A stretch of DNA of 45,415 bases from contig JAUWPO010000003.1 of assembly GCA_030611505.1 (NCBI GenBank), forward strand, positions 1-45,415, in the 5' to 3' direction. Source of the DNA: Chloroflexota bacterium. GTDB taxonomy: Bacteria > Chloroflexota > Anaerolineae > Anaerolineales > UBA4823. Shown piece after piece: positions 20,400-31,158 of the stretch. The notes below the pieces were generated by a model, which was not told the DNA's origin, made no database searches, and saw nothing but the letters and a program-made list of their open reading frames with translations. Position 1 is the first letter of the stretch; each line of letters opens with the position of its first letter. The position numbers and the translations under genes are program-made.

Positions 20400-21737
20400 A
20401 TGCAAACGTTCAATTTACCAGGACCGAAAGCCCGGTCACTCATAGAGCGTGACAATAAGGTTATCTCACCATCCTATCCACGCGGCTACCCATTTGTTAT
20501 GGAGCGAGGCCGAGGTGTAGAAGTATGGGATGTGGATGGGAATCGCTTTTTGGATTTCGCAGCCGGTATCGCTGTCGTCGCAACCGGACACAGCCATCCG
20601 AAAGTTGTTCAAGCGATCCAGGAGCAGGCTGAAAAGTTCATTCACATTTCTTCAGATTTTTACCACGAGAAGTGGGTTGAATTAGCGGAAGCCATCAATG
20701 GGATAGCACCCTTTTCAGAAGAAGCTGTATCTTTTATGACCAATTCGGGGACAGAAAGCGTCGAAGCTGCTATTAAACTGGCTCGTTCTCATACGGGTCG
20801 CACCCAATTTATAGGATTTCTTGGTGGATTTCATGGGCGAACAATGGGGTCGATTGCATTTACAGCCAGCAAAAAAGTTTACCGTCATGGCTTCTTTCCT
20901 TTTATGAGCGGTGTTGTACATGTTCCGTATCCTGATCCTTACCGGCAAGTACTGGAATCACCCCCGCGAGAAGATTATGGTGATACAGTTGTGCGTTATA
21001 TTGAGGAGCAGATACTTACCAAGGTTATTCCACCTGATGATCTGGCTGGAATTTTAATTGAACCAATCCAAGGAGAGGGTGGTTATATCATTCCATCGCC
21101 CGGCTTCTTCCCGGCTTTGCGCCGGTTATGTGATAAGTATGGGATACTATTGATCGCTGATGAAGTGCAATCGGGGATCGGACGCACTGGTAAATGGTGG
21201 GCGATTGAACATTTTGGGGTTGAACCCGATATTGTATGTACGGCGAAAGGAATCGCTTCCGGTATGCCTCTTGGGGTTATGTTCGCACGAAGGCAAATTA
21301 TGGATTGGCAAAAAGGGGCACATGGAAATACTTACGGAGGAAACCCTGTAGCATGCGCTGCGGCTTTAGCGACGATTTCCCTGGTGGAAAATGAGTATAT
21401 GCAGAACGCTTCGGCGGTTGGCCGGTATACAAAGGAACTGGCGGAGGAGATTCTATTAAATAAGTATTCTTCTATTGGCGAAATACGGGGGCAAGGGCTA
21501 ATGATCGGTATTGAGTTTGTCGAGGATCGTAATACTAAAAAACCAGCTGAGCAATTGCGCGACGCGATCATTGAGAATGCATTTCAACGGGGTTTAATCT
21601 TGCTGGGTTGTGGCAAGAGCACCATAAGATTAGCCCCACCGCTTTGTGTAACTCGAGAAGAAGTGGATGAGGCTCTTGAAATCCTCGATGAGGTTATCAT
21701 GATCAGTGAAGGAGAATTTCACACAATTGCTGCCTGA
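20400..21737 (+). CDS. Class III PLP aminotransferase (4-aminobutyrate/acetylornithine/ornithine aminotransferase family)
   Basis: Motifs DVDGNRFLDFAAGIAV..GHSHP, NSGTESVE, FHGRT, EPIQGEGGY, DEVQSGIGRTG and TAKGIASG (PLP Lys). SD AGGAG. Confidence 0.92.
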   Translation: MQTFNLPGPKARSLIERDNKVISPSYPRGYPFVMERGRGVEVWDVDGNRFLDFAAGIAVVATGHSHPKVVQAIQEQAEKFIHISSDFYHEKWVELAEAINGIAPFSEEAVSFMTNSGTESVEAAIKLARSHTGRTQFIGFLGGFHGRTMGSIAFTASKKVYRHGFFPFMSGVVHVPYPDPYRQVLESPPREDYGDTVVRYIEEQILTKVIPPDDLAGILIEPIQGEGGYIIPSPGFFPALRRLCDKYGILLIADEVQSGIGRTGKWWAIEHFGVEPDIVCTAKGIASGMPLGVMFARRQIMDWQKGAHGNTYGGNPVACAAALATISLVENEYMQNASAVGRYTKELAEEILLNKYSSIGEIRGQGLMIGIEFVEDRNTKKPAEQLRDAIIENAFQRGLILLGCGKSTIRLAPPLCVTREEVDEALEILDEVIMISEGEFHTIAA

Positions 21738-23289
21738 TTTCAGAGTCCGTCAACGGGATTATCTGCTTGAGATTCTACGTGCCATTACTCAGGAGCTGGA
21801 TTTAGATAAAGTATTGGCGCGTATTTTACACATTTCAATTGAGATGATGGCAGGTCAAGCGGGATTAATAGCCTTACGTGATGTTCAAAAAGGTTGGTCG
21901 GTAGCCGTATCCCAAGGTATTCCAGCGACGTTTATCCGGACATTGGATCCGCTGCTTGCACACGTTCCTCTGGAGAATGACCCGGCACGGAATGAGTTTT
22001 CAGACATTAACCGCTTGCTGCAGGGGTTAACACGTGCTGCTAGTTTAAGTCTGCTCACTGGGGTCGGGCTTCCGCTAATTGCCAGAAAGCAGGTGACTGG
22101 TGTCTTGTTCATCTTTCGTAATTACCAGGGTGTATTTTCGTCTAACGACAGGACGCTGCTGCAAAGTTTTGCTGACCAGGCAGCGATTGCCGTACAAAAT
22201 GCACAGCTATATACCCAGGTGCTCAACGAAGAAAGGCGGATGTCAGCTCTCCTGGATTCTGTGGCTGATGGAATTCTGATATTATCCGCTCATTATACAA
22301 TTGAACGCTGCAACAGGGCTATGGCAAGAATGTTGGGGGTTAGTATGGCTGATATTGTAGGGCGGAATCATGCAGATGTCGTTCTTTGGGTACATCGCGA
22401 AGATGGGGTGACGTTAGAACAAGCTAAAGAAGGTGGGTGGCCCTTGACCCCGAACGCAACTTTGTATGTGGAGGGAGATTTGGAACGTCCAGTCCGACCG
22501 CCTTTGCCTGTCGGAATTACATACGCGCCCCTTCTTTCAGTGGAAGGTAATTTGATTAATATTGTTGCTTCCGTACGCGATATCACCCATTTTCGGGAGG
22601 CAGAAGAACTAAAGAGTACTTTCATCTCTGTAATCAGCCATGAGCTGAAAACACCTGTAGCGCTTATCAAAGGCTATGTGGGAACGCTACGCAGAGAAGA
22701 CGTTAATTGGGATCGCAAGATTGTAGAGGACAGCCTGGAAGTAATCGAAGAAGAATCGGACCGCTTGACAGAGCTAATTGAGGACTTGTTGGATGCATCA
22801 CGGTTGCAGGCTGGCGCTTTATCCATCAACATGACTGAAGTATCATTGGATTTATTAGCAAAGCAGATAGCGACGCGTTTTCAGGTGCAATCAACAATAC
22901 ACAATATCGTAGTGGATTTCCCTGAAGGCTTTCCAGTAATTCTGGGGGATGAAGACCGCCTATCTCAGGTCTTTGCTAACTTGATTTCAAATGCTATTAA
23001 ATATTCACCAGAAGGTAGTGAAATCCAAATAAATGGTCAGGTGAAATCTGAACATTTAATTGTCTGTGTAAGCGATCGAGGTCTTGGTATCGCCGCAGAT
23101 GATTTGCCGCATATATTTGATCGTTTCTACCGGGCGAGTGAAGTATCACGTACGACAAAAGGAACCGGTCTTGGTTTATATCTTGCTCGGGCAGTGATTG
23201 AAGCGCATGGCGGACGTATTTGGGTTGATCCAAAACCGGGTGATGGTGCCAGGATATGTTTTTCAATCCCACGTGATCTTAAAGGATAA
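21727..23289 (+). CDS. Cytoplasmic GAF-PAS sensor histidine kinase (HisKA/HATPase_c), orphan
   Basis: GAF ending FADQAAIAVQNAQLY; PAS LLDSVADGIL..CNRA; H-box SHELKTP; N-box NLISNAIKYS; G boxes DRGLGI, FDRFYR, GTGLGL. No TM. TTG 21727 after AAGGAG is preferred over GTG 21706. Confidence 0.93.
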   Translation: MLPDFRVRQRDYLLEILRAITQELDLDKVLARILHISIEMMAGQAGLIALRDVQKGWSVAVSQGIPATFIRTLDPLLAHVPLENDPARNEFSDINRLLQGLTRAASLSLLTGVGLPLIARKQVTGVLFIFRNYQGVFSSNDRTLLQSFADQAAIAVQNAQLYTQVLNEERRMSALLDSVADGILILSAHYTIERCNRAMARMLGVSMADIVGRNHADVVLWVHREDGVTLEQAKEGGWPLTPNATLYVEGDLERPVRPPLPVGITYAPLLSVEGNLINIVASVRDITHFREAEELKSTFISVISHELKTPVALIKGYVGTLRREDVNWDRKIVEDSLEVIEEESDRLTELIEDLLDASRLQAGALSINMTEVSLDLLAKQIATRFQVQSTIHNIVVDFPEGFPVILGDEDRLSQVFANLISNAIKYSPEGSEIQINGQVKSEHLIVCVSDRGLGIAADDLPHIFDRFYRASEVSRTTKGTGLGLYLARAVIEAHGGRIWVDPKPGDGARICFSIPRDLKG

Positions 23290-23378: not shown

Positions 23379-24725
23379 ATGCCAAAAACAAATATTAATT
23401 GTCCTAATTGTCACCGGTCTATTGTTGCAGATATTGACCGGTTGTTTGATTTGGGGACCGATCCAACGGCTAAACAACGTTTGCTCACAGGCGCATTTAA
23501 CGTTGTGCTGTGCTCGTACTGTGGTTATCAGGGTCAAATTGCTACACCGATTGTGTATCATAATCCAGAGAAAGAGCAATTACTTACATTCGTGCCTCCA
23601 GAGGCTGGGTTACCGCATGACGAACAAGAACGCGTTATCGGTTCTATGGTTATTCAAGTGACCAATAATCTGCCCCAAGATAAGCGTAAAGGTTATTTGC
23701 TGCGTCCACAGGCTACATTAACCTTGCAAGGTTTGGTAGAACGTGTACTCGAGGCTGATGGGATCACCAAAGAAATGATACAAGCCCAACAGGAGAAATT
23801 TCAATTAATTCAACGCTTATTAGAAACAACGGATGAAAAAGAGATTGGCGAAGTTGCAAAGAATGAAGATACGAAAATTGACGCCGAATTTTTTATACTT
23901 CTTCAGCGGCTAACAGGAGCATCCATTCAAAGTGGAGACCAGGAAACCGCAAGAAAATTAGAACAATTGCGAGAGAGTCTGCTGCCAGTGACAACTTTTG
24001 GGCGGGAAATCCAATCGCAAACACAAGAGATGGAAGCCGCGGTTGCAGACCTTCAGGCTGCGGGGGAAGAATTGGATCGAGAGACGATGCTAGACCTAAT
24101 CATCAAAGCCCCTAACGATACCCGGATTAGAGCGTTGGTGAGCCTGGCACGTCCAATTATTGATTATCCATTCTTCCAGATGCTTAGTGAACGTATTGAT
24201 CGCGCCCGCGGGGATGGACGCACCCGTTTGGTTGAACTCCGTTCTGATCTTTTAGATTTGACTGAGGAAATTGATCGTCAAGTGGCTGCGCACGTTCAGG
24301 AACAAAAGAGCCTAATTAATAAAATATTGCAGGAAACCGATGTTAAAAATGCCATGCAGAATTATTTACCGGCAGTAGATGAATACTTTATAAGAGAATT
24401 GGAACAGCGATTGGAGGATGCCCGTAAACAGGGAGATTTGGAGCAGATAGTAAAGCTGCAGGATATGATTGATATTGTTGAGGAAGCCAGTGCTCCCCCA
24501 CCAGAACTAGCGTTGATTGAGGAATTGCTTCAGGCATCGGATGATCAATCCCGTCGAGAAATACTTGATGTTCATCAAGAAGAAATCACACCAGAATTCG
24601 CCAATGCTTTATCAAATATTGTGGTTCAAGCCCAGTCCAGCGAAGATAATAAGCTGGCCGAACGCGCCTTGGCAGTTAATCGCCAGGTGCTGCGCTTTTC
24701 TATGAAGAAGAATATCATCAAATGA
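23379..24725 (+). CDS. CpXC zinc-ribbon domain protein with C-terminal helical repeats
   Basis: The N-terminal CPNC...LL.G..N...CSYCG......PIVYH.PEKE.L..FVP matches the CpXC pattern. The rest is acidic and alpha-helical. SD GGAG. Confidence 0.8.
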   Translation: MPKTNINCPNCHRSIVADIDRLFDLGTDPTAKQRLLTGAFNVVLCSYCGYQGQIATPIVYHNPEKEQLLTFVPPEAGLPHDEQERVIGSMVIQVTNNLPQDKRKGYLLRPQATLTLQGLVERVLEADGITKEMIQAQQEKFQLIQRLLETTDEKEIGEVAKNEDTKIDAEFFILLQRLTGASIQSGDQETARKLEQLRESLLPVTTFGREIQSQTQEMEAAVADLQAAGEELDRETMLDLIIKAPNDTRIRALVSLARPIIDYPFFQMLSERIDRARGDGRTRLVELRSDLLDLTEEIDRQVAAHVQEQKSLINKILQETDVKNAMQNYLPAVDEYFIRELEQRLEDARKQGDLEQIVKLQDMIDIVEEASAPPPELALIEELLQASDDQSRREILDVHQEEITPEFANALSNIVVQAQSSEDNKLAERALAVNRQVLRFSMKKNIIK

Positions 24726-24731
24726 TTTAAA

Positions 24732-25463
24732 TTACTCAATTGGAGGGTTGTCTAAACGCAGACCATGACCGCGGACGGTGACGATATATGAATGATTCGC
24801 ATCGATATTGGCAAGCCTGTTTCGCAGTCTTCTAACCAAAGCATCTAGGGCTTGGATGGAAACCTCTAAGGCTTGATTCTCTCCCCATACCGCGGAAATT
24901 AATTCATAGCGCGAGATAACACGACCTTGGTTTTCGTAAAGCTGTTCTAATAGTCGAAATTGGGACACCGATAGGGGTGGAACAACTTCCTCTTCGCTGG
25001 CAAGCTGCCCATGTTTGACGAAATTGATCCAGACTCGTCTGGATTTCTTGTCCAGTCGTAAACGACTGGTGTTTTGAACTGGTTCTTGAGCCTGATATTG
25101 ATTGGAGATTTGTGGTTCTAAATCTTGTGAATTGAGAGGGAGTGTGGCATCAGAACTTAGAAATACAAATCTTTGTACCAAAGCAATTTGGATAACGTCA
25201 CCATCTTGGAGGGTTACAGCGTCATTGAGTCGTTTCCCATTACGGTGCGTTCCATTTTTGCTCTTTAAATCTTCTAAAAAGATTCCCTTGGGAGCAACCG
25301 AAATGCGTGCATGATGACGGGAAACCTGACGATCAGTGATGACTATATCGCAGCTTGTTTCACGCCCTATTAACAGATTTCTGCCCAATAACCACTGTTT
25401 ACCATTCAATGGTCCTGCCTGGGCAAGCAATAATGACGCTTCATCATTATAGTTATTCATCAT
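24732..25463 (-). CDS. FHA domain + OmpR/PhoB-type winged-helix DNA-binding protein
   Basis: FHA motifs IGR..CDIVI.D..VSRHHARI and DLKSKNGT..NG. wHTH LS..QFRLLE.LY.N.GRVISR.ELI.AVW...LDALVRRLRNRL...YIVTVRGHG. SD GGAGGG supports ATG 25463 or 25460. Confidence 0.9.
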   Translation of the reverse strand: MMNNYNDEASLLLAQAGPLNGKQWLLGRNLLIGRETSCDIVITDRQVSRHHARISVAPKGIFLEDLKSKNGTHRNGKRLNDAVTLQDGDVIQIALVQRFVFLSSDATLPLNSQDLEPQISNQYQAQEPVQNTSRLRLDKKSRRVWINFVKHGQLASEEEVVPPLSVSQFRLLEQLYENQGRVISRYELISAVWGENQALEVSIQALDALVRRLRNRLANIDANHSYIVTVRGHGLRLDNPPIE

Positions 25464-25478
25464 CACGCCCTCCATGGG

Positions 25479-25550
25479 TATAATAACATAAATATTTTCG
25501 TAAAAAGTCCATCCATAACCTTTGCATCATTTAAATTAATCAGGTATTAT
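25479..25550. promoter_or_regulatory. Divergent promoters between the FHA-wHTH and Ser/Thr kinase genes
   Basis: Minus strand: extended TGtTATTAT at 25480-25488, overlapping a plus-strand TATAAT at 25479-25484. Plus strand: TTGCAT (25522-27), 17 nt, TATTAT (25545-50). Confidence 0.5.
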
Positions 25551-25598
25551 TAAGAATAAAAGGAAAATTTGACGTTAGTGGATCAATAAAATGTGCCT

Positions 25599-26582
25599 AT
25601 GCCATTAAAATCAGGTGAAGTTCTGCGCGAACGATATAAAATTCGCCGTATTATCGGTCATGGGGGTATGGGTAGTATTTATCTGGCAGATGATCTCCGG
25701 CTTGAAGGTCGAATGTGTGCTTTAAAAGAAGTTGAGCATGATCACACTTTGCCTGAAGAGATGATCAAACAGGCACGCGATCAATTCATGCGCGAAGCTA
25801 CTGTTCTAGCCCGACTGGACCATCCCAATTTGCCAAAGGTGTCTGATTTCTTTTCTCATGGGGGGCGCGATTTCCTGGTGATGGATTTCGTGCCGGGGAA
25901 GGATCTGCGTACACTAATGAATGAAGCCCACCAGAAAGGAGATTTTCTGTCAGAACGAGAAGTATTGAGTTGGGCAAATCAGTTGGCGAATGCTTTGAAT
26001 TACTTGCACAACCAGAATCCTCCGATCCTGCATAGAGATATCAAACCCAGTAATTTAAAATTAACACCAACGGATACAGTGAAACTGGTTGATTTTGGAT
26101 TGGTAAAAATTTTGGCATCTGAAGAGGTCACGATAACAATCTTGCAGGGTCGCGGTACAGCTCTATATACACCTCTTGAGCAATATGGTGGAGATTCAGG
26201 TCACACAGATATTCGGAGTGATGTTTATGCGTTTGGAGCTACACTTTATCACCTGTTGACAAATCAAAAGCCAGTAGAAGCTCGTGAACTTTTCTTACAC
26301 CCCGATTCTTTGATCCCTCCCCGACAATTGAACCCTGATCTCAGCCTCCGTACTGAACGTGCTGTTTTATGGGCAATGAATTTGCATCCTGACGAACGAC
26401 CTCAAGATATCGAATCTTTTCGAAAAGCCCTATTGGGTGACTGGGATCCAATTATTCGACCGCGAGCATCTCTACCATCACCTACTTTGGCCGATTTAGT
26501 ATCATCACCGATAGAGCGGACACTAATATTGGTATCTCTAGGTTTGCTATTTCTGAGCCTAGCTGTAACGTTATTACGCTAA
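25599..26582 (+). CDS. Hanks-type Ser/Thr protein kinase with a single C-terminal TM anchor
   Basis: Motifs GHGGMG, ALKE, HRDIKPSN, DFG, GT..Y.PLEQ and SDVYAFG. It ends in hydrophobic LILVSLGLLFLSLAVTLLR with no extracellular domain. Start is GTG 25593 or ATG 25599. Confidence 0.95.
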   Translation: MPLKSGEVLRERYKIRRIIGHGGMGSIYLADDLRLEGRMCALKEVEHDHTLPEEMIKQARDQFMREATVLARLDHPNLPKVSDFFSHGGRDFLVMDFVPGKDLRTLMNEAHQKGDFLSEREVLSWANQLANALNYLHNQNPPILHRDIKPSNLKLTPTDTVKLVDFGLVKILASEEVTITILQGRGTALYTPLEQYGGDSGHTDIRSDVYAFGATLYHLLTNQKPVEARELFLHPDSLIPPRQLNPDLSLRTERAVLWAMNLHPDERPQDIESFRKALLGDWDPIIRPRASLPSPTLADLVSSPIERTLILVSLGLLFLSLAVTLLR

Positions 26583-26614
26583 AACGGAATCTTGCGATGA
26601 AATTCTCATACTCG

Positions 26615-29446
26615 TCAATCTTCAGGTTCTTCGCTTTGGGGCCCTCTTACCGAGAGCGCTCTCCAGGATAAAGCGACCAGCAAACCGATAACAGTCCCGA
26701 ATAGAGTAATCAAGAAAACGCTCCTTGAAATGGAGCCACCGAGCAAACTTTGGCTGGTGGGTAGTTGGTAAGCAAGGTAAGAGTAAGCCAGCAAACCACT
26801 GATTAAAGCTAAAAAACCGGCACGGATGCCCCATTTAACATGTCCAATTAAAGCTGCCAATCGATAGGACGACCATGCTATTGCAATTGATATCAAGGTC
26901 GCCATGAGCCAATCGCTCAATCTTGTGTGATTAGATATTCCAGGTGGAGATGGAGGTTTCGTCGGTATTGGATTCGAAACTTTCGTGGGAAAGTTTGTGG
27001 GAGCTGTGGTAGCTTGAGTAGTTAATTCAGTAGGGGTGACTTCACCGTTGGGTGAGGGGACATCAAACTTCAAACTCGTTGATTTGGCTGGCTCGCTTTC
27101 AGCTTGGATTTCCAGATTGCCAGGTGATGAAACTGCAAAAGATGTTCTAGCGATGCCATCGACTGTGGTTTCCATCTGTTGAGTGATGCTTGCTTCACCA
27201 CTAACAGTCAGAACAAAATCCACTGGTGTTCCATCCGGGACAGGATTTCCATTATGGTCAAAAATCGTACCGGTTCGTACTGGAATTATATCGCCCACTC
27301 GAAATTCTGGGGGAGGTGTTGGCTCAGGAGTGGTTGCATCGTCGGTATTTTCAGGTTCTGGAACGTCAATTCCGAGAGGGATAATTTGCTCCGGATTTGG
27401 GAACAAAGCTGTATTTAGGTCATAATTAATTCCTGATATCGAGACTGGTGATGCACTTCCTGGCTGAATTTCATGGAATAAAAGGTAAGATGACAGGTCT
27501 ATAAATTGTGGAATTTTACTATAAAGACCATAATAGGCTGTTATTTTCGATATATTTGTGGCGTCTAAGAAATAGGGGGCATTGAAGGCGAATACGATTA
27601 AACGTTTTTGTTGGAATAGATCGGGGCGTTCGTTCAGAAACCGAATAAGTGTTTGGTACGATGGGACCTCGGTACTGTTATCCAACATCGCGAAAACGAT
27701 CCAATTACTACGTTGAAAATCATTCTGCAGTTGTGAGTCTTGCAAGCTGCCATCTAGCATACTTTCCAGGTTGGCGAGAGAATAGGATGAGAGATTGCTC
27801 TGCGTCACCTGTCCACCGGCAAGGGGCCCATATCTGCGTATCACAAATTCCTGTAAAGCCCTCACACCGAGAATCGGCTGCTCCGTGCATTGGCTGCATT
27901 GTTGTGTCGGGCGCGAATCGCTGATAAACACAATGCGGTCATTTTGATTGGGTGGGTCGGGAATCGTCTCATCCAGCTCGGCTTGAGAAGGACTAATTAA
28001 AGTAGCTCCTTGTCTAGCAACTTCAAAAACGATCTGGTCAGCCTCTTCTAATTCGATCGAAATATTGGGTTCAGCGATGATCTGATCTAAAGAATCTTTT
28101 CCGTACAATCTATATTTCAGGTTCAGAATTCGCAATACTGATTCATCTACACGTTGAGCGAATACGTTATCTTCACGATATTTTTGAGCAAAAAAATCAA
28201 GTGTACGTACAGTAGATGTATAAGAAACGGGATCGGTCTCAGAAGAAAAATCTGCCATGTAAAGTAGATCATTGCCAGCTAGAAATGCATTAAGCGCTAC
28301 ACGGCGGGGGTCGAAAGTCTGGCTGGTCAGTTCATAAAACCGGCGTACTGCCGGGCTGCCGAGATTATCGCTAATCATTACTCCCCCATTTTGACGCCAC
28401 GAATCTAAAATCGGCTGCTCCAGAAGCAAGTTCAGGGCTTGAGGATCTAGGCTGACAGGGCGAGTGGTTGCGCGAATATTGCCTTGCAGACCTTGATAGC
28501 GGATATGAGAAGTTAGCAGCGCATCTGTGGTTTCTTCTAGTGATAATGCGTCTCCTGTTACGGTGAAGAACGGGGCTAGGTCAAACGTAATCAATTCTTC
28601 TAAGGACTTTCGGACGGTAGCAACTTCATCCTCAGGTAAACGGTCGGCACCACCATGTCCGGGAAAGTGCTTAGCAACAACAACAACTCTTCCAGCACTG
28701 CCTGTGTGCACACCACGGATGTAGGCGCGTCCCATTTCTGCCACCCAATAGGGATCTCCGCCAAATGTCCGCGCCCCGAGGTCATTAGTTCCTTCAATTT
28801 GAGGGCTTTCCAATATGTCCAATGATGGTCCAAGCAGTAAATTTATGCCCACAGATGTCAGTTCGCTACCAAGGATTGTTCCTACTTCCGCTGCCAGTTC
28901 TGGGTTCCATGTAGCCCCGAGCGCCATGTGGTTAGGCAAGGGTGTCAACCCAAAAAGAACTTGATCATAAGGATAGCCATCTCCCTCCTGGGACATGCCG
29001 ATAAGGAGAGGAATATAGGATGGGACGAATATTTCTCCTGAAGTAGGATTTTCCTGGCTCTGCTGTGCAGCAGTCCATTCGGTTTTTTGGAGGTCGCGTG
29101 TTAAGGCTCGCAGTTGCAGGCCAGTATCATCAGGTGATTGGTTGACATGTGTCAGATTGTCGTTCTCGTCTAATATTACAACGCTGCCGATATGATAATT
29201 CATGATCAGGTCGTGGATTTGAGATTCTGGTCCAACGTCAGTACCAACGAATGTAATCATGAAGAGTTGACCGACCTTCTCTTCTGGGGTCAGGTTATTT
29301 AGAACTCCAGCTGCTTGAGATTCTGGTGTTGTTGTGACGGTCTGGGCAGCCACCTCAAATCCCGGCAAAGTCAGCACCAGGATGGATAACAAGACGATTA
29401 CAATCGAGATATTGACTTTGAAATTTCGGAACAATATCGACATCAT
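26615..29446 (-). CDS. Secreted, membrane-anchored GH3 (NagZ-like beta-N-acetylhexosaminidase family) protein with atypical active site
   Basis: Signal peptide; GH3 motifs LTPEEKVGQLF, SQEG, MALGAT, GINL.LGP.LD, RTFG, KHFPGHG, ISDNL and AGNDLL. Then an Ig-like region (D.NGNPVPDGTPV.F), a Pro/Thr linker and three C-terminal TM helices. Confidence 0.85.
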   Translation of the reverse strand: MMSILFRNFKVNISIVIVLLSILVLTLPGFEVAAQTVTTTPESQAAGVLNNLTPEEKVGQLFMITFVGTDVGPESQIHDLIMNYHIGSVVILDENDNLTHVNQSPDDTGLQLRALTRDLQKTEWTAAQQSQENPTSGEIFVPSYIPLLIGMSQEGDGYPYDQVLFGLTPLPNHMALGATWNPELAAEVGTILGSELTSVGINLLLGPSLDILESPQIEGTNDLGARTFGGDPYWVAEMGRAYIRGVHTGSAGRVVVVAKHFPGHGGADRLPEDEVATVRKSLEELITFDLAPFFTVTGDALSLEETTDALLTSHIRYQGLQGNIRATTRPVSLDPQALNLLLEQPILDSWRQNGGVMISDNLGSPAVRRFYELTSQTFDPRRVALNAFLAGNDLLYMADFSSETDPVSYTSTVRTLDFFAQKYREDNVFAQRVDESVLRILNLKYRLYGKDSLDQIIAEPNISIELEEADQIVFEVARQGATLISPSQAELDETIPDPPNQNDRIVFISDSRPTQQCSQCTEQPILGVRALQEFVIRRYGPLAGGQVTQSNLSSYSLANLESMLDGSLQDSQLQNDFQRSNWIVFAMLDNSTEVPSYQTLIRFLNERPDLFQQKRLIVFAFNAPYFLDATNISKITAYYGLYSKIPQFIDLSSYLLFHEIQPGSASPVSISGINYDLNTALFPNPEQIIPLGIDVPEPENTDDATTPEPTPPPEFRVGDIIPVRTGTIFDHNGNPVPDGTPVDFVLTVSGEASITQQMETTVDGIARTSFAVSSPGNLEIQAESEPAKSTSLKFDVPSPNGEVTPTELTTQATTAPTNFPTKVSNPIPTKPPSPPGISNHTRLSDWLMATLISIAIAWSSYRLAALIGHVKWGIRAGFLALISGLLAYSYLAYQLPTSQSLLGGSISRSVFLITLFGTVIGLLVALSWRALSVRGPQSEEPED

Positions 29447-29476
29447 ATTAATTTCGGTAGAATGCCTGTAATATCA

Positions 29477-30325
29477 TTAATGAAGGATGTCATTTGAATA
29501 CGATTCAGCCTGGACAATTTTCCGGAGCAATTTCCTGCGAGTGGCACCGCTGAGCATCTCCAGTCTCCGTATGCCTGATGGGTCGATCTTTTCACGAAGC
29601 AAGTGGATTTCTTCTTCTGTGGGCGTGGGGGTCTCATGGACGTCCGGAGAAATTTCAAATTCGAAACCCGTTCGGGCTTTTATATGAGTGATGGTCACAC
29701 CAGGATGATAAGTGGTCAGGCGCATAAGGGATTTGTGCGGTGGTTGACCACCTTTGAAGTCAAACTCCCCAAGATCTGTGACAAGGTACTTAGGTCCTTC
29801 CCCAAATTTTCGAGCGGGGTTATGACCCAAGCCGGACAAAAAATCCAATTTAGGTACAAAAGTTAAGCGCGAGTGGCGGGGGACATAGAGATATATATCG
29901 TTGATAATCGGAGTCAAATCAGGGATACCGCCAGTTCCAGGAAGACGAAGGCGGGGCTTCTTGTAATCTTTGCCAAAAGCAATATTGTTGAAATTACCAT
30001 GTGGATCGATTTGAGCTGGGCGGAAGAATTCTTTTGGACGCAGGCAGGGCAGAATATCGGCAGCAGCACGTACAAATCCTACGTTTATCAGAGAGTGATC
30101 CAGCCAAAGACTCTCCACTTTGGTCAGGCTTAACGGCGCTGGCTGCCGACATATGCCTTGTCCTATTGCGGACACAAAGTAGAGGTTCGGTGCGTGAGTG
30201 TATCGTGCTAACAAGTAAGCAGCTGCAATCAATGGAGTGGCAAGACCTTGAGCTACAATCTCGCCGTTGACAATCTGACGTGATATGCAGATTGCCATGT
30301 ATTCGTCGCGGGTGATTTCCATCAT
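29477..30325 (-). CDS. Family I CoA-transferase beta-subunit-like protein (GctB/PcaJ/IpdB-like)
   Basis: Motifs AAYLLAR.THAPNL, AQID.HGNFN, RLPGTGG.PD, FVPKLDF.SG, GP.YLVTDLG.FDF and HPGVT...I...TGF..P.PTEEE..LLR. Likely start ATG 30325. Confidence 0.85.
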   Translation of the reverse strand: MMEITRDEYMAICISRQIVNGEIVAQGLATPLIAAAYLLARYTHAPNLYFVSAIGQGICRQPAPLSLTKVESLWLDHSLINVGFVRAAADILPCLRPKEFFRPAQIDPHGNFNNIAFGKDYKKPRLRLPGTGGIPDLTPIINDIYLYVPRHSRLTFVPKLDFLSGLGHNPARKFGEGPKYLVTDLGEFDFKGGQPPHKSLMRLTTYHPGVTITHIKARTGFEFEISPDVHETPTPTEEEIHLLREKIDPSGIRRLEMLSGATRRKLLRKIVQAESYSNDILH

Positions 30326-30402
30326 ATTACTACAAGTCCTAATAGACAAAATCAATCTGAATATCACATTATATGACGTCTTTGGATAAGACGCGTTGAT
30401 TA

Positions 30403-31158
30403 TTAATAATTTCTAACCCCGAAAATTTGTTTTGCCAAGATTGGATCGTCAGTAAAAATCCCATCAACGCCCATAGTGAACATACGGTAGATATCTTCTT
30501 CTCGATTTACGGTGTATACGAATAATTTCTTCCCTTTTGCTTGTGTTCTTCTTACTAGCTCTGTTGTAACATCAATCTGTTTACTGTGTAAGCTGCTGTA
30601 AGGTATTAGTTTTCCGATAAAAGAACGAGCCCAAGCGCCGCCTTTGCCCGGTAGGGACAGGAGACCGATTGGGACTTCAGGCAGCAAGCGGTAGATTCGA
30701 ATCAAGGCGATAGGATTAAAGGATGAGAGTAAAATTCTATGTCTTAGATTATAGTTATTGATCAAATCAGCCACTTTCTCAGGTAGATTGTCGGTAATTT
30801 TATCGTAGTTCGTTAATTCAATGTTGAGAAAGGATCGCTGACCGATATTGTCCAAGACTTCTGCAAGCGTAGGAATTTGTGATCCCTGAAAAGCGATATC
30901 GAAATGGCTACCGGCATCTAGAGATTTTAATACTTCTAAAGAAAGTTCTCCCACTCGACCATGTTCTCCTGTAGTGCGATCAATGGTTTGGTCGTGAATG
31001 ACAACGACCTGTCCATCGGCACTTAGTTTCACGTCAAGCTCAATCGCATCAGCTCCCTGGAGAATCGCAAGCTGGAAGGCAGGGAGAGTGTTTTCGGGTG
31101 CGTATAGGCTGGCACCACGGTGGGCGATTATTGCTGGTTTTGGTAGTTGATAGAGCAT
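30403..31158 (-). CDS. Glycerophosphodiester phosphodiesterase (GlpQ/UgpQ family)
   Basis: Motifs IIAHRGAS..APENTL.AF, IELDV.LS.DG..VVIHD.T.DRT and GVDGIFTDDP. Confidence 0.95.
   Translation of the reverse strand: MLYQLPKPAIIAHRGASLYAPENTLPAFQLAILQGADAIELDVKLSADGQVVVIHDQTIDRTTGEHGRVGELSLEVLKSLDAGSHFDIAFQGSQIPTLAEVLDNIGQRSFLNIELTNYDKITDNLPEKVADLINNYNLRHRILLSSFNPIALIRIYRLLPEVPIGLLSLPGKGGAWARSFIGKLIPYSSLHSKQIDVTTELVRRTQAKGKKLFVYTVNREEDIYRMFTMGVDGIFTDDPILAKQIFGVRNY

Follow-up and report, generated by a model that had tools for sequence, protein, structure and literature searches.

What activates bacterial Hanks-type Ser/Thr kinases is a long-standing question, and few ligands are known, namely muropeptides for PASTA domains and aspartate for GlnH. 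In Actinobacteria, a Hanks kinase with separately encoded sensing and an FHA output is described as the GlnH-GlnX-PknG-GarA/OdhI system (available parts of PMC9769921 and PMC6069109). In Mycobacterium tuberculosis, according to the available part of PMC4601284, PknH phosphorylates EmbR, the FHA domain being needed for the kinase-regulator interaction, and in the PknL-Rv2175c pair a neighbouring winged helix-turn-helix (wHTH) protein is phosphorylated on a flexible segment by a membrane kinase. In EspM, a characterised transcription factor of Mycobacterium marinum, an FHA domain occupies the N terminus and DNA binding resides in the C-terminal part (available part of PMC11005418). Here, we analysed a three-gene locus on a 45,415-nucleotide (nt) stretch of contig JAUWPO010000003.1 (assembly GCA_030611505.1, Chloroflexota bacterium, order Anaerolineales), the whole of which is called the window below. 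The locus encodes an FHA-wHTH regulator, a tail-anchored RD-type Hanks kinase and a membrane-anchored protein that resembles NagZ of glycoside hydrolase family 3 (GH3). This trio is a conserved unit rather than a chance neighbourhood, and the module is real in that sense; we put the chance that its members act together as one Ser/Thr-phosphorylation module of the class, consisting of a pseudo-NagZ receptor, the kinase and the regulator, at about one in two.

GlnH-GlnX-PknG-GarA/OdhI and PknH-EmbR are the closest functional analogues of the locus. The former, as far as the cited reports cover it, likewise combines a Hanks kinase that has no sensor of its own, an extracytoplasmic binder with a multi-pass membrane protein, an FHA output and linked genes; sequence kinship is limited to the kinase and FHA folds, and the analogy is a functional one only. 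GlnH is, in the same accounts, a solute-binding protein for Asp/Glu that acts beside a separate GlnX with four transmembrane (TM) helices, whereas here binder and TM relay would be a single GH3-fold polypeptide. PknG is soluble and carries TPR, whereas the window kinase is tail-anchored with no TPR in the Pfam scan, and GarA/OdhI is portrayed there as an inhibitor of enzymes, whereas the window FHA protein carries a DNA-binding domain. PknH-EmbR, in the part of the literature cited above, also joins a membrane Hanks kinase to a regulator with OmpR-type DNA-binding and FHA domains; however, EmbR has the order wHTH-BTAD-FHA (SARP), whereas the window regulator is FHA-linker-wHTH, lacks BTAD and is half the size, and PknH has its own extracellular sensor domain, of which the window kinase has none. 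The original prediction from this DNA had drawn the same contrast in domain order and had noted that PknB/PrkC sense muropeptides through their own PASTA domains, and both comparisons are correct. PASTA kinases (PknB, PrkC, Stk1), which are thought to report on the cell wall, share the Hanks kinase with the window protein, but the latter has neither PASTA repeats nor extracellular residues. PknL has almost no extracellular part, and the PknL and Rv2175c genes are divergent; unlike the trio, Rv2175c has no FHA domain and the pair has no known partner receptor. EspM, in the available account, provides a precedent for the FHA-first order, although its C terminus consists of two HTH domains around a helical bundle rather than an OmpR-type wHTH, and that account describes no dedicated kinase or receptor. 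The GH3-like protein is comparable with the two-domain NagZ/YbbD enzymes (Bacillus subtilis 3bmx/4gyj, Paenibacillus 6k5j) in fold, KHFPGHG motif and extracytoplasmic location, but it has L-P-E in place of the catalytic dyad and adds an Ig-like domain, a Pro/Thr (P/T)-rich stalk and three TM helices. A literature search, with most subscription journals outside its scope, returned no account of the trio and no description of FHA-Trans_reg_C regulators from Chloroflexota or of any glycosidase-like protein that partners a Hanks kinase. The system had been called undescribed, which stands for the trio in the literature found; outsourced sensing with an FHA effector, on the other hand, has its precedent in GlnH-GlnX-PknG-GarA/OdhI.

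The trio was searched for in 41 relatives from the same family and order as the window and in a phylum sample of 301 genomes, identical for each protein search (E <= 1e-40 for the GH3-like protein, E <= 1e-72 for the kinase and E <= 1e-22 for the FHA-wHTH protein), and linkage counts were compiled by hand from coordinate tables. Among the relatives, 39 of 41 had all three proteins, with a single-copy, syntenic kinase orthologue (E <= 1e-107) and a full-length regulator orthologue; none of them was found in G005 (77% complete) or G011 (90% complete). The GH3-like and kinase genes were convergent neighbours in all 37 informative relatives (contig ends cut the locus in G007 and G038), and the FHA gene lay within 400 nt of the kinase gene in 34 of 38, the exceptions being G006 (0.7 kb), G032 (1.8 kb), G009 (2.7 kb) and G039 (21 kb). 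In the phylum sample, 34 genomes had the GH3-like protein and exactly these had the kinase orthologue, neither being found in the other 267; these 34 comprise the window genome, 27 other sampled members of the order, four of six representatives of the remaining orders in the class, and the two genomes of f25, a family in another class. Across the 301 and 41 genomes searched, one of these two proteins was never found without the other. The FHA-wHTH protein was present in the same 34 genomes and in the class members G070 and G159, with weaker matches in nine others. As for layout, 21 of the 34 had the full trio, two had GH3-like and kinase genes together with the FHA gene 21-23 kb off (G039 and G186, genus g39), eight had the kinase-FHA pair with the GH3 gene elsewhere (six g41 genomes, G123 and G132), and three were cut by contig ends, so that the GH3-like and kinase genes were neighbours in 23 of 31 informative genomes and the FHA gene stood beside the kinase gene in 32 of 34. 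Note that in the unlinked lineages, at least three in number (all six sampled g41 genomes, G123 and G132), both the GH3-like and the kinase gene were retained.

A scan anchored on the GH3-like protein, with one genome per species, gave 80 loci, all from Chloroflexota with Anaerolineales-type records, including Thermanaerothrix daxensis, T. solaris, Brevefilum fermentans, Levilinea and Longilinea. Of 76 informative loci, 59 had the kinase gene convergent directly behind the GH3 gene and two others had it no more than 4 kb away; fifteen had no kinase in at least 1.4 kb of 3' flank, and four loci were uninformative. Where this could be judged, the FHA gene stood beside the kinase gene in 53 of 54 loci. 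A gene-by-gene comparison of 21 loci showed that the trio is the only gene set common to all of them, and G328, from another order of the class, carries two complete divergent trios (L031 and L032, on contigs C25 and C36), one kinase of which has a 45-residue outside tail. The neighbourhood of the kinase and regulator genes, from which their link had been argued, is borne out by these counts, as is the expected co-occurrence and neighbourhood of the three genes. The GH3 link had been said to rest on adjacency only, which proved too modest, as the shared set of genomes, the persistence of the trio among unrelated flanks and its duplication in G328 all bear on it. Split or stop-containing genes were seen in some relatives, namely a GH3 gene in two frames (G002:C23) or with one TAA (G006:C5) or two TGA (G007:C361), an FHA gene in two frames (G003:C2) and a kinase gene with one TGA (G012:C13); these broken copies are either assembly errors of metagenome-assembled genomes or decaying copies.

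The three open reading frames (ORFs) of the original prediction were recovered exactly, and their features are listed in Table 1. The kinase domain was identified by Pfam PF00069 (Pkinase; 128.9 bits against a cut-off of 31.7, E 2.9e-37), and its best NCBIfam model was PknB_PASTA_kin (NF033483), which matched the kinase domain only (190.6 bits against a cut-off of 450). Because the catalytic residues K45, E68, H147-R148-D149, N154 and D167-F168-G169 are all unchanged in 28 orthologues, the protein is an intact RD kinase. Its activation loop, V-T180-I-T182-I-L-Q-G-R-G-T-A-L-Y-T-P-L-E, is highly conserved, with I or V at T180+3 in 21 of 21 aligned orthologues. The C terminus, R309-TLILVSLGLLFLSLAVTLL-R329, is preceded by a conserved juxtamembrane stretch, and since the TM helix ends the protein save for R329, the kinase has nothing outside the membrane, as had been foreseen. 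All 53 Anaerolineales kinases that were scored likewise have their last hydrophobic window ending at most one residue from the C terminus. The GTG start at 25593 is orthologous to an ATG in the sister genome. A P/T-rich outside tail of 30-45 residues occurred only in L029 and L030, from another class-level family, and in L032, one of the two G328 copies, and these outside-tailed kinases pair with three GH3-like proteins having a longer outside loop between the second and third TM helices. This is a weak hint of co-variation, representing at most two independent events. In the 80 extra loci, where pairs were dropped if the BLAST alignment fell short of kinase residue 320 or GH3-like residue 900, all 53 filtered pairs were from Anaerolineales, with tails of 0-1 residues and no variation; TM calling based on hydrophobicity is too crude for loop lengths.

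The regulator had been described as a divergently transcribed protein with FHA and OmpR-type wHTH domains, in which the FHA domain takes the place of a receiver (REC) domain. In agreement with this, no Response_reg match was found in Pfam, and NCBIfam response-regulator models matched only residues ~135-245, far under their cut-offs; BTAD was also absent from the Pfam scan, and the domain order is FHA followed by wHTH. The phosphothreonine (pThr)-binding residues G37-R38, S52, H55 and N74 of the FHA domain showed no variation across 55 sequences. T111 (T107 in the 55-sequence alignment, which is numbered from M5) was also identical in 55 of 55, and the following P and L, the latter at pT+3, were at least 90% conserved. 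The S-S-D-A-T-L-P-L segment that holds it sits directly C-terminal to the last FHA strand (97-102), in a non-structured stretch of the AlphaFold2 (AF2) model, and is a candidate phospho-acceptor that could be both the target of the kinase and a ligand of the FHA domain. The AF2 model (mean per-residue confidence, pLDDT, 87.8; pTM 0.50) has two confident domains, an FHA beta-sandwich at residues 10-102 (M5 numbering) and a wHTH of beta-sheet, three helices and hairpin, joined by a low-confidence linker and with no fixed mutual orientation. The ESM Atlas had no entry for P0001 or its homologue P0054. The start of the gene is more likely M5 (ATG at 25463) than the longest-ORF start, judging from a GGAGG 5 nt upstream and agreement with the N termini of orthologues. 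In two loci, L039 (G070) and L040 (G159), FHA-wHTH proteins (E 1e-42 and 1e-30) keep the invariant Thr in genomes with no kinase or GH3 orthologue at the thresholds used, and there their genes come after unrelated ones (miaA plus an uncharacterised 231-aa ORF in one, rpiB plus an uncharacterised 184-aa ORF in the other). The regulator family apparently can be wired otherwise.

The 943-aa GH3-like protein had been assigned a NagZ-like domain that lacks its catalytic His, an Ig-like domain, a P/T stalk and three TM helices. AF2 and Foldseek gave the same architecture with one refinement, namely that the NagZ-like part has a second domain, an alpha/beta sandwich, after the TIM barrel, as in B. 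subtilis NagZ/YbbD. The model, built from a 61-sequence alignment (pLDDT 85.2, pTM 0.78), begins with an N-terminal hydrophobic helix at residues 3-26, and its ectodomain was closest to 6k5j (TMt 0.85, E 8.9e-34), followed by B. subtilis YbbD/NagZ 3bmx and 4gyj (TMt 0.76-0.77). The Ig-like region gave a sub-threshold Big_1 match (22.6 bits against a cut-off of 34.9), the stalk differs in length between orthologues, and R875, G884, Y888, G917 and W928 are near-invariant in the TM region. In NagZ, the Asp and His of the D-S-H motif form the acid/base catalytic dyad. In HMMER alignments with all four of the solved NagZ structures 6k5j, 3tev, 4zm6 and 5g1m, L270-P271-E272 lies opposite this D-S-H, while a further solved entry, 5g5u, has D-S-A at the place of the dyad. 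Among 61 orthologues, none has His at the position of E272 (E in 49, T in three, D in three, G in two, A in two, V in one and R in one), and the loss is wider than had been noticed, since the dyad Asp is present in only four and the sugar-binding Asp of the DQEGG motif in only five. The sugar-pocket residues are largely kept (K259 in 45, H260 in 54 and R226 in 55 of the 61), as is the nucleophile D360 of the window protein, which 56 of 61 orthologues share; the other five have S (two), L, P or A there, with the full architecture otherwise kept. Because the dyad His is missing throughout and the nucleophile Asp is gone in these five, the protein looks like a pseudo-glycosidase. The NCBIfam NagZ equivalog NF003740 scored 61.6 bits against a cut-off of 207, and orthologues are publicly annotated as beta-N-acetylhexosaminidase or as 'GH3 N-terminal domain-containing protein'. 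The ectodomain has a mean column identity of 43% and family-specific invariants (D268-R269, W234, C520 and D730/N732/D738), and such catalytic decay under strong constraint is typical of a pseudo-enzyme with some retained function, of which binding is the simplest. Two features are foreign to canonical NagZ: C517-x-x-C520 in the alpha/beta sandwich (27887-27898), with C517 at least 90% conserved and C520 invariant, and D730-x-N732-x5-D738 in the Ig-like domain (27233-27259), which resembles a Ca-binding loop.

Table 1. Features of the three-gene locus and its surroundings, with window coordinates.
Feature	Coordinates	Strand	Details
FHA + OmpR-type wHTH regulator gene, P0001	24732-25475	-	247 aa as longest ORF
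FHA core, residues 35-97	25185-25373	-	Pfam PF00498, 77.9 bits vs cut-off 20.7, E 7.7e-22
S-S-D-A-T-L-P-L segment with T111, pT+3 = L114	25134-25157	-	alignment conservation
OmpR/PhoB-type winged-helix domain, residues 168-240	24756-24974	-	Pfam PF00486 Trans_reg_C, 62.7 bits vs cut-off 26.2, E 3.3e-17
Divergent spacer between FHA and kinase genes	25476-25592	.	holds conserved GGTATAAT-A-n-CATAAA element
Tail-anchored RD-type Hanks Ser/Thr kinase gene, P0002	25593-26582	+	329 aa
Activation segment DFG to PLE, residues 167-196	26091-26180	+	conserved T180-I-T182-I183, T189, T193
Single C-terminal TM helix, residues 310-328	26520-26576	+	R329 alone after helix
Membrane-anchored NagZ-like apparent pseudo-glycosidase gene, P0003	26615-29446	-	943 aa
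GH3 N-terminal TIM-barrel domain, residues 55-443	28118-29284	-	Pfam PF00933 Glyco_hydro_3, 124.6 bits vs cut-off 27, E 7.6e-36
Motif K259-H-F-P-G-H-G-G-A-D268-R269-L-P-E272	28631-28672	-	stands for canonical ...GHGxxxxDSH
Nucleophile D360	28367-28369	-	alignment to solved NagZ enzymes
Second GH3 domain, alpha/beta sandwich, ~residues 466-690	27377-28051	-	HMMER alignment to 4zm6 over residues 54-677; Foldseek
Ig-like beta-sandwich, residues 720-796	27059-27289	-	AF2 strands; invariant D730, N732, D738
Disordered P/T-rich stalk, residues 801-835	26942-27046	-	pLDDT <50
Three TM helices, residues 843-866, 870-892, 906-933	26648-26920	-	AF2; short cytoplasmic tail after
GAF-PAS histidine kinase gene, soluble product	21706-23289		adjoins CpXC gene
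CpXC-domain protein gene, 448 aa	23379-24725		convergent on FHA gene

We propose the following mechanism, in which the sensor would be the two-domain NagZ fold, exposed on the external side of the membrane, with R226, K259, H260 and D360 of the pocket kept and the dyad gone. It may bind a glycan of the N-acetylglucosamine (GlcNAc) type or a muropeptide, either without cleavage or with slow cleavage. The three TM helices of the GH3-like protein would lie beside the TM helix of the kinase and undergo a ligand-dependent rearrangement or clustering, upon which the kinase would autophosphorylate its conserved T180-x-T182 activation loop. The FHA domain of the regulator could then dock on the phosphorylated kinase, where pT180-x-x-I183 would fit a pTxx(I/L/V) ligand, and the kinase would phosphorylate the regulator, most likely at the invariant T111. 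Reciprocal or intramolecular binding of FHA to pT111 may alter how the wHTH oligomerises and hence its DNA binding and transcriptional output, the FHA domain thereby taking the role that a receiver domain has in response regulators. A sensor role of the GH3-like protein and TM contact with the kinase are plausible proposals. Dedicated wiring of this kind fits the window genome (86% complete), because its kinome is small, with three Hanks kinases and one PP2C phosphatase. In its most specific form, that is, a class-defining three-protein pathway akin to a two-component system, with a substrate-trapping NagZ receptor for GlcNAc glycans or muropeptides of the wall, a four-helix intramembrane relay and a T111 switch in which FHA:pThr binding replaces receiver dimerisation, we consider the proposal unlikely to hold as a whole.

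Several observations weigh against the reading of the trio as one module, and some of them favour an account in which only the kinase and the FHA-wHTH protein signal, the kinase being activated from inside or by the state of the membrane and the GH3-like protein being a target, substrate, scaffold client or mere neighbour. On a FastTree phylogeny of 102 GH3-like proteins (99 labelled; ORFs <700 aa left out), separation of the GH3 gene from the kinase gene required at least seven changes, in about seven lineages, and 15 of the 21 separated rows form one well-supported clade; on this tree, GH3-kinase adjacency is therefore ancestral, with a handful of later losses. When unlinked, the GH3 gene stays with GDPD, and its former position in the g41 clade is occupied by a PP-loop gene of TtuA-like (tRNA thiolation) type, convergent on the kinase gene (L033 5321-6280, L035 3303-4256). 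The convergent orientation of the GH3-like and kinase genes, whose stop codons are 32 nt apart, means that they do not form a single transcript or operon, and with so little of the GH3-like protein in the cytoplasm, any signal must pass within the membrane. Synteny is block-wide within the order, where gene order is generally stable: CpXC and GAF-PAS histidine kinase genes flank the FHA gene in 10 of the 21 compared loci, and a CoA-transferase-like gene or GDPD lies upstream of the GH3 gene in 8-9 of 21. Where the block breaks up, CpXC goes with the FHA gene (e.g., G039) and GDPD with the GH3 gene (e.g., G296), so that some of the adjacency may reflect gene order passed down from an ancestor. 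The perfect co-occurrence is also largely one clade-wide presence, and each of the co-absences (G005, G011, G070 and G159) could be a single block deletion, CpXC being missing from G005 and G011 too. In addition, the kinase-FHA adjacency is the tightest link at the locus, and a sensor-less membrane kinase with an adjacent regulator has a precedent in PknL-Rv2175c, as far as the available part of PMC4601284 describes it. Nevertheless, signalling by these two proteins alone appears rather unlikely, given that the kinase and the GH3-like protein always occur together in the genomes searched, that in genus g39 it is the FHA gene which moved while GH3 and kinase genes stayed together, and that the whole trio is duplicated in G328; a substrate role is further disfavoured by a cytoplasmic loop and tail of the GH3-like protein without conserved Ser or Thr. 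The confounding of co-occurrence with shared descent, together with the conserved succession of adjoining genes within the family, would also suit the extreme case of clade-specific genes that sit side by side through slow rearrangement with no functional link. This is very improbable, since the trio survives in loci of other families and classes (G248, G042, G054 and G328) that share none of the flanks named above, since it was duplicated in full in G328, and since the divergent arrangement of an FHA protein gene and a Hanks kinase gene is a textbook sign of functional partners.

The remaining alternatives concern the nature of the proteins themselves. The GH3-like protein might be an active membrane-anchored beta-N-acetylglucosaminidase of wall turnover that uses another acid/base residue (E272 or D268), with the kinase pathway regulating it or answering its product. 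Its public annotation as an enzyme, the retained pocket and nucleophile, the invariant D268-R269 and a fold so near to NagZ would all be expected of such a protein, and residual catalysis with the Glu found in 49 of 61 orthologues as acid/base might occur, which is a further point against a pure receptor. This account is improbable, however, because the Asp-His dyad is absent in 61 of 61, the Glu is itself replaced in 12 of 61, the nucleophile and the sugar-binding Asp are lost in five and 56 orthologues, respectively, and the NagZ equivalog score is far below its cut-off. A reading of the locus as a defence system with a PD-T4-6-like anti-phage kinase is scarcely credible: PADLOC PD-T4-6 models do match the kinase domain (best E 1.9e-57), as do the NCBIfam MADS6 and PglW kinase models, but all of these match a generic Hanks kinase domain, and the FHA, GH3-like and CpXC proteins had no PADLOC match (0 of 3). 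Moreover, the locus is vertically inherited, single-copy and class-wide among tgt, recJ, gap and pgk, with no patchy, island-like distribution. Taken together, the results support the original interpretation in part.

The window is chromosomal DNA with a GC content of 43-48%, in which an Rfam scan gave no family at gathering thresholds, and the locus is surrounded by the housekeeping genes tgt, uppP/bacA, an aminotransferase gene, recJ, cofD, gap, pgk and tpi. CpXC may be a fourth associated component or mere synteny; it was not found in G005 and G011, both of which lack the trio. A GDPD gene lies upstream of the GH3 gene on the same strand (window 29477-31158; L036 3996-4748; L041 3451-4158), with a weak CoA-transferase-like gene between them in the window, and in G039 the GDPD end overlaps the GH3 start by 4 nt, suggesting co-transcription.

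The FHA and kinase genes diverge over ~120 nt, and the spacer holds the element GGTATAAT-A-n-CATAAA at 25476-25492, with TATAAT at 25479-25484, which abuts the ribosome-binding site of the FHA gene. Of 28 orthologous loci, 21 have TATAAT in a matching context ahead of the kinase gene, and in one more it falls within an ORF that was called too long. Just 12 nt separate TATAAT in G037 and G040 from the called start codon of the kinase gene, which would be near-leaderless, whereas the family of the window has a leader of 35-125 nt. The near-symmetry of the element (TATAATA / TATTATA) could allow it to serve both divergent genes. A generic promoter and terminator scan of 24600-29700 gave eight promoter-like and five terminator-like sites, not above shuffled sequences; it missed the conserved TATAAT and placed no terminator between the convergent stop codons. 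In metatranscriptome run X17, a 1035-nt contig (depth 130, nine mismatches) spans 25444-26470 and covers the first bases of the FHA gene, the full spacer and 878 nt of the kinase gene, and two more RNA runs gave short contigs of 93-99% identity on the kinase, GH3-like and FHA genes. Note that these contigs carry no strand, ends or levels and may include DNA carry-over, so that they speak at most for presence in RNA libraries, and that parts of the stretch left uncovered in runs X15-X18 are uninformative. A small palindromic RNA contig turns at ~25437-25444, and AATAAT at 25429-25434 would fit a start on the + strand near there, which would imply head-to-head overlapping transcripts.

The locus is a small, strongly conserved candidate whose receptor, kinase and transcription factor can each be pointed out, and the proposed module makes predictions at the level of residues, namely that the receptor would bind without cleaving, that T180/T182 would be autophosphorylated, and that T111 would be the acceptor, bound via R38 and S52 of the FHA domain. 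Because Thermanaerothrix daxensis and T. solaris are culturable carriers of the trio, the idea is directly testable. The analysis also corrects an automatic annotation in wide use, as thousands of metagenomic orthologues are called beta-N-acetylhexosaminidase while the catalytic His is missing from all 61 examined. If the proposal is true, the GH3-like protein would be the first glycosidase pseudo-enzyme to serve as receptor of a bacterial Hanks kinase, and FHA-OmpR fusion regulators would receive their first functional assignment; for now, FHA-Trans_reg_C fusions have a first functional hypothesis. In their hosts, which are environmental, non-pathogenic filamentous Chloroflexota, the three genes probably form an uncharacterised signalling pathway that extends across a class of filamentous bacteria.

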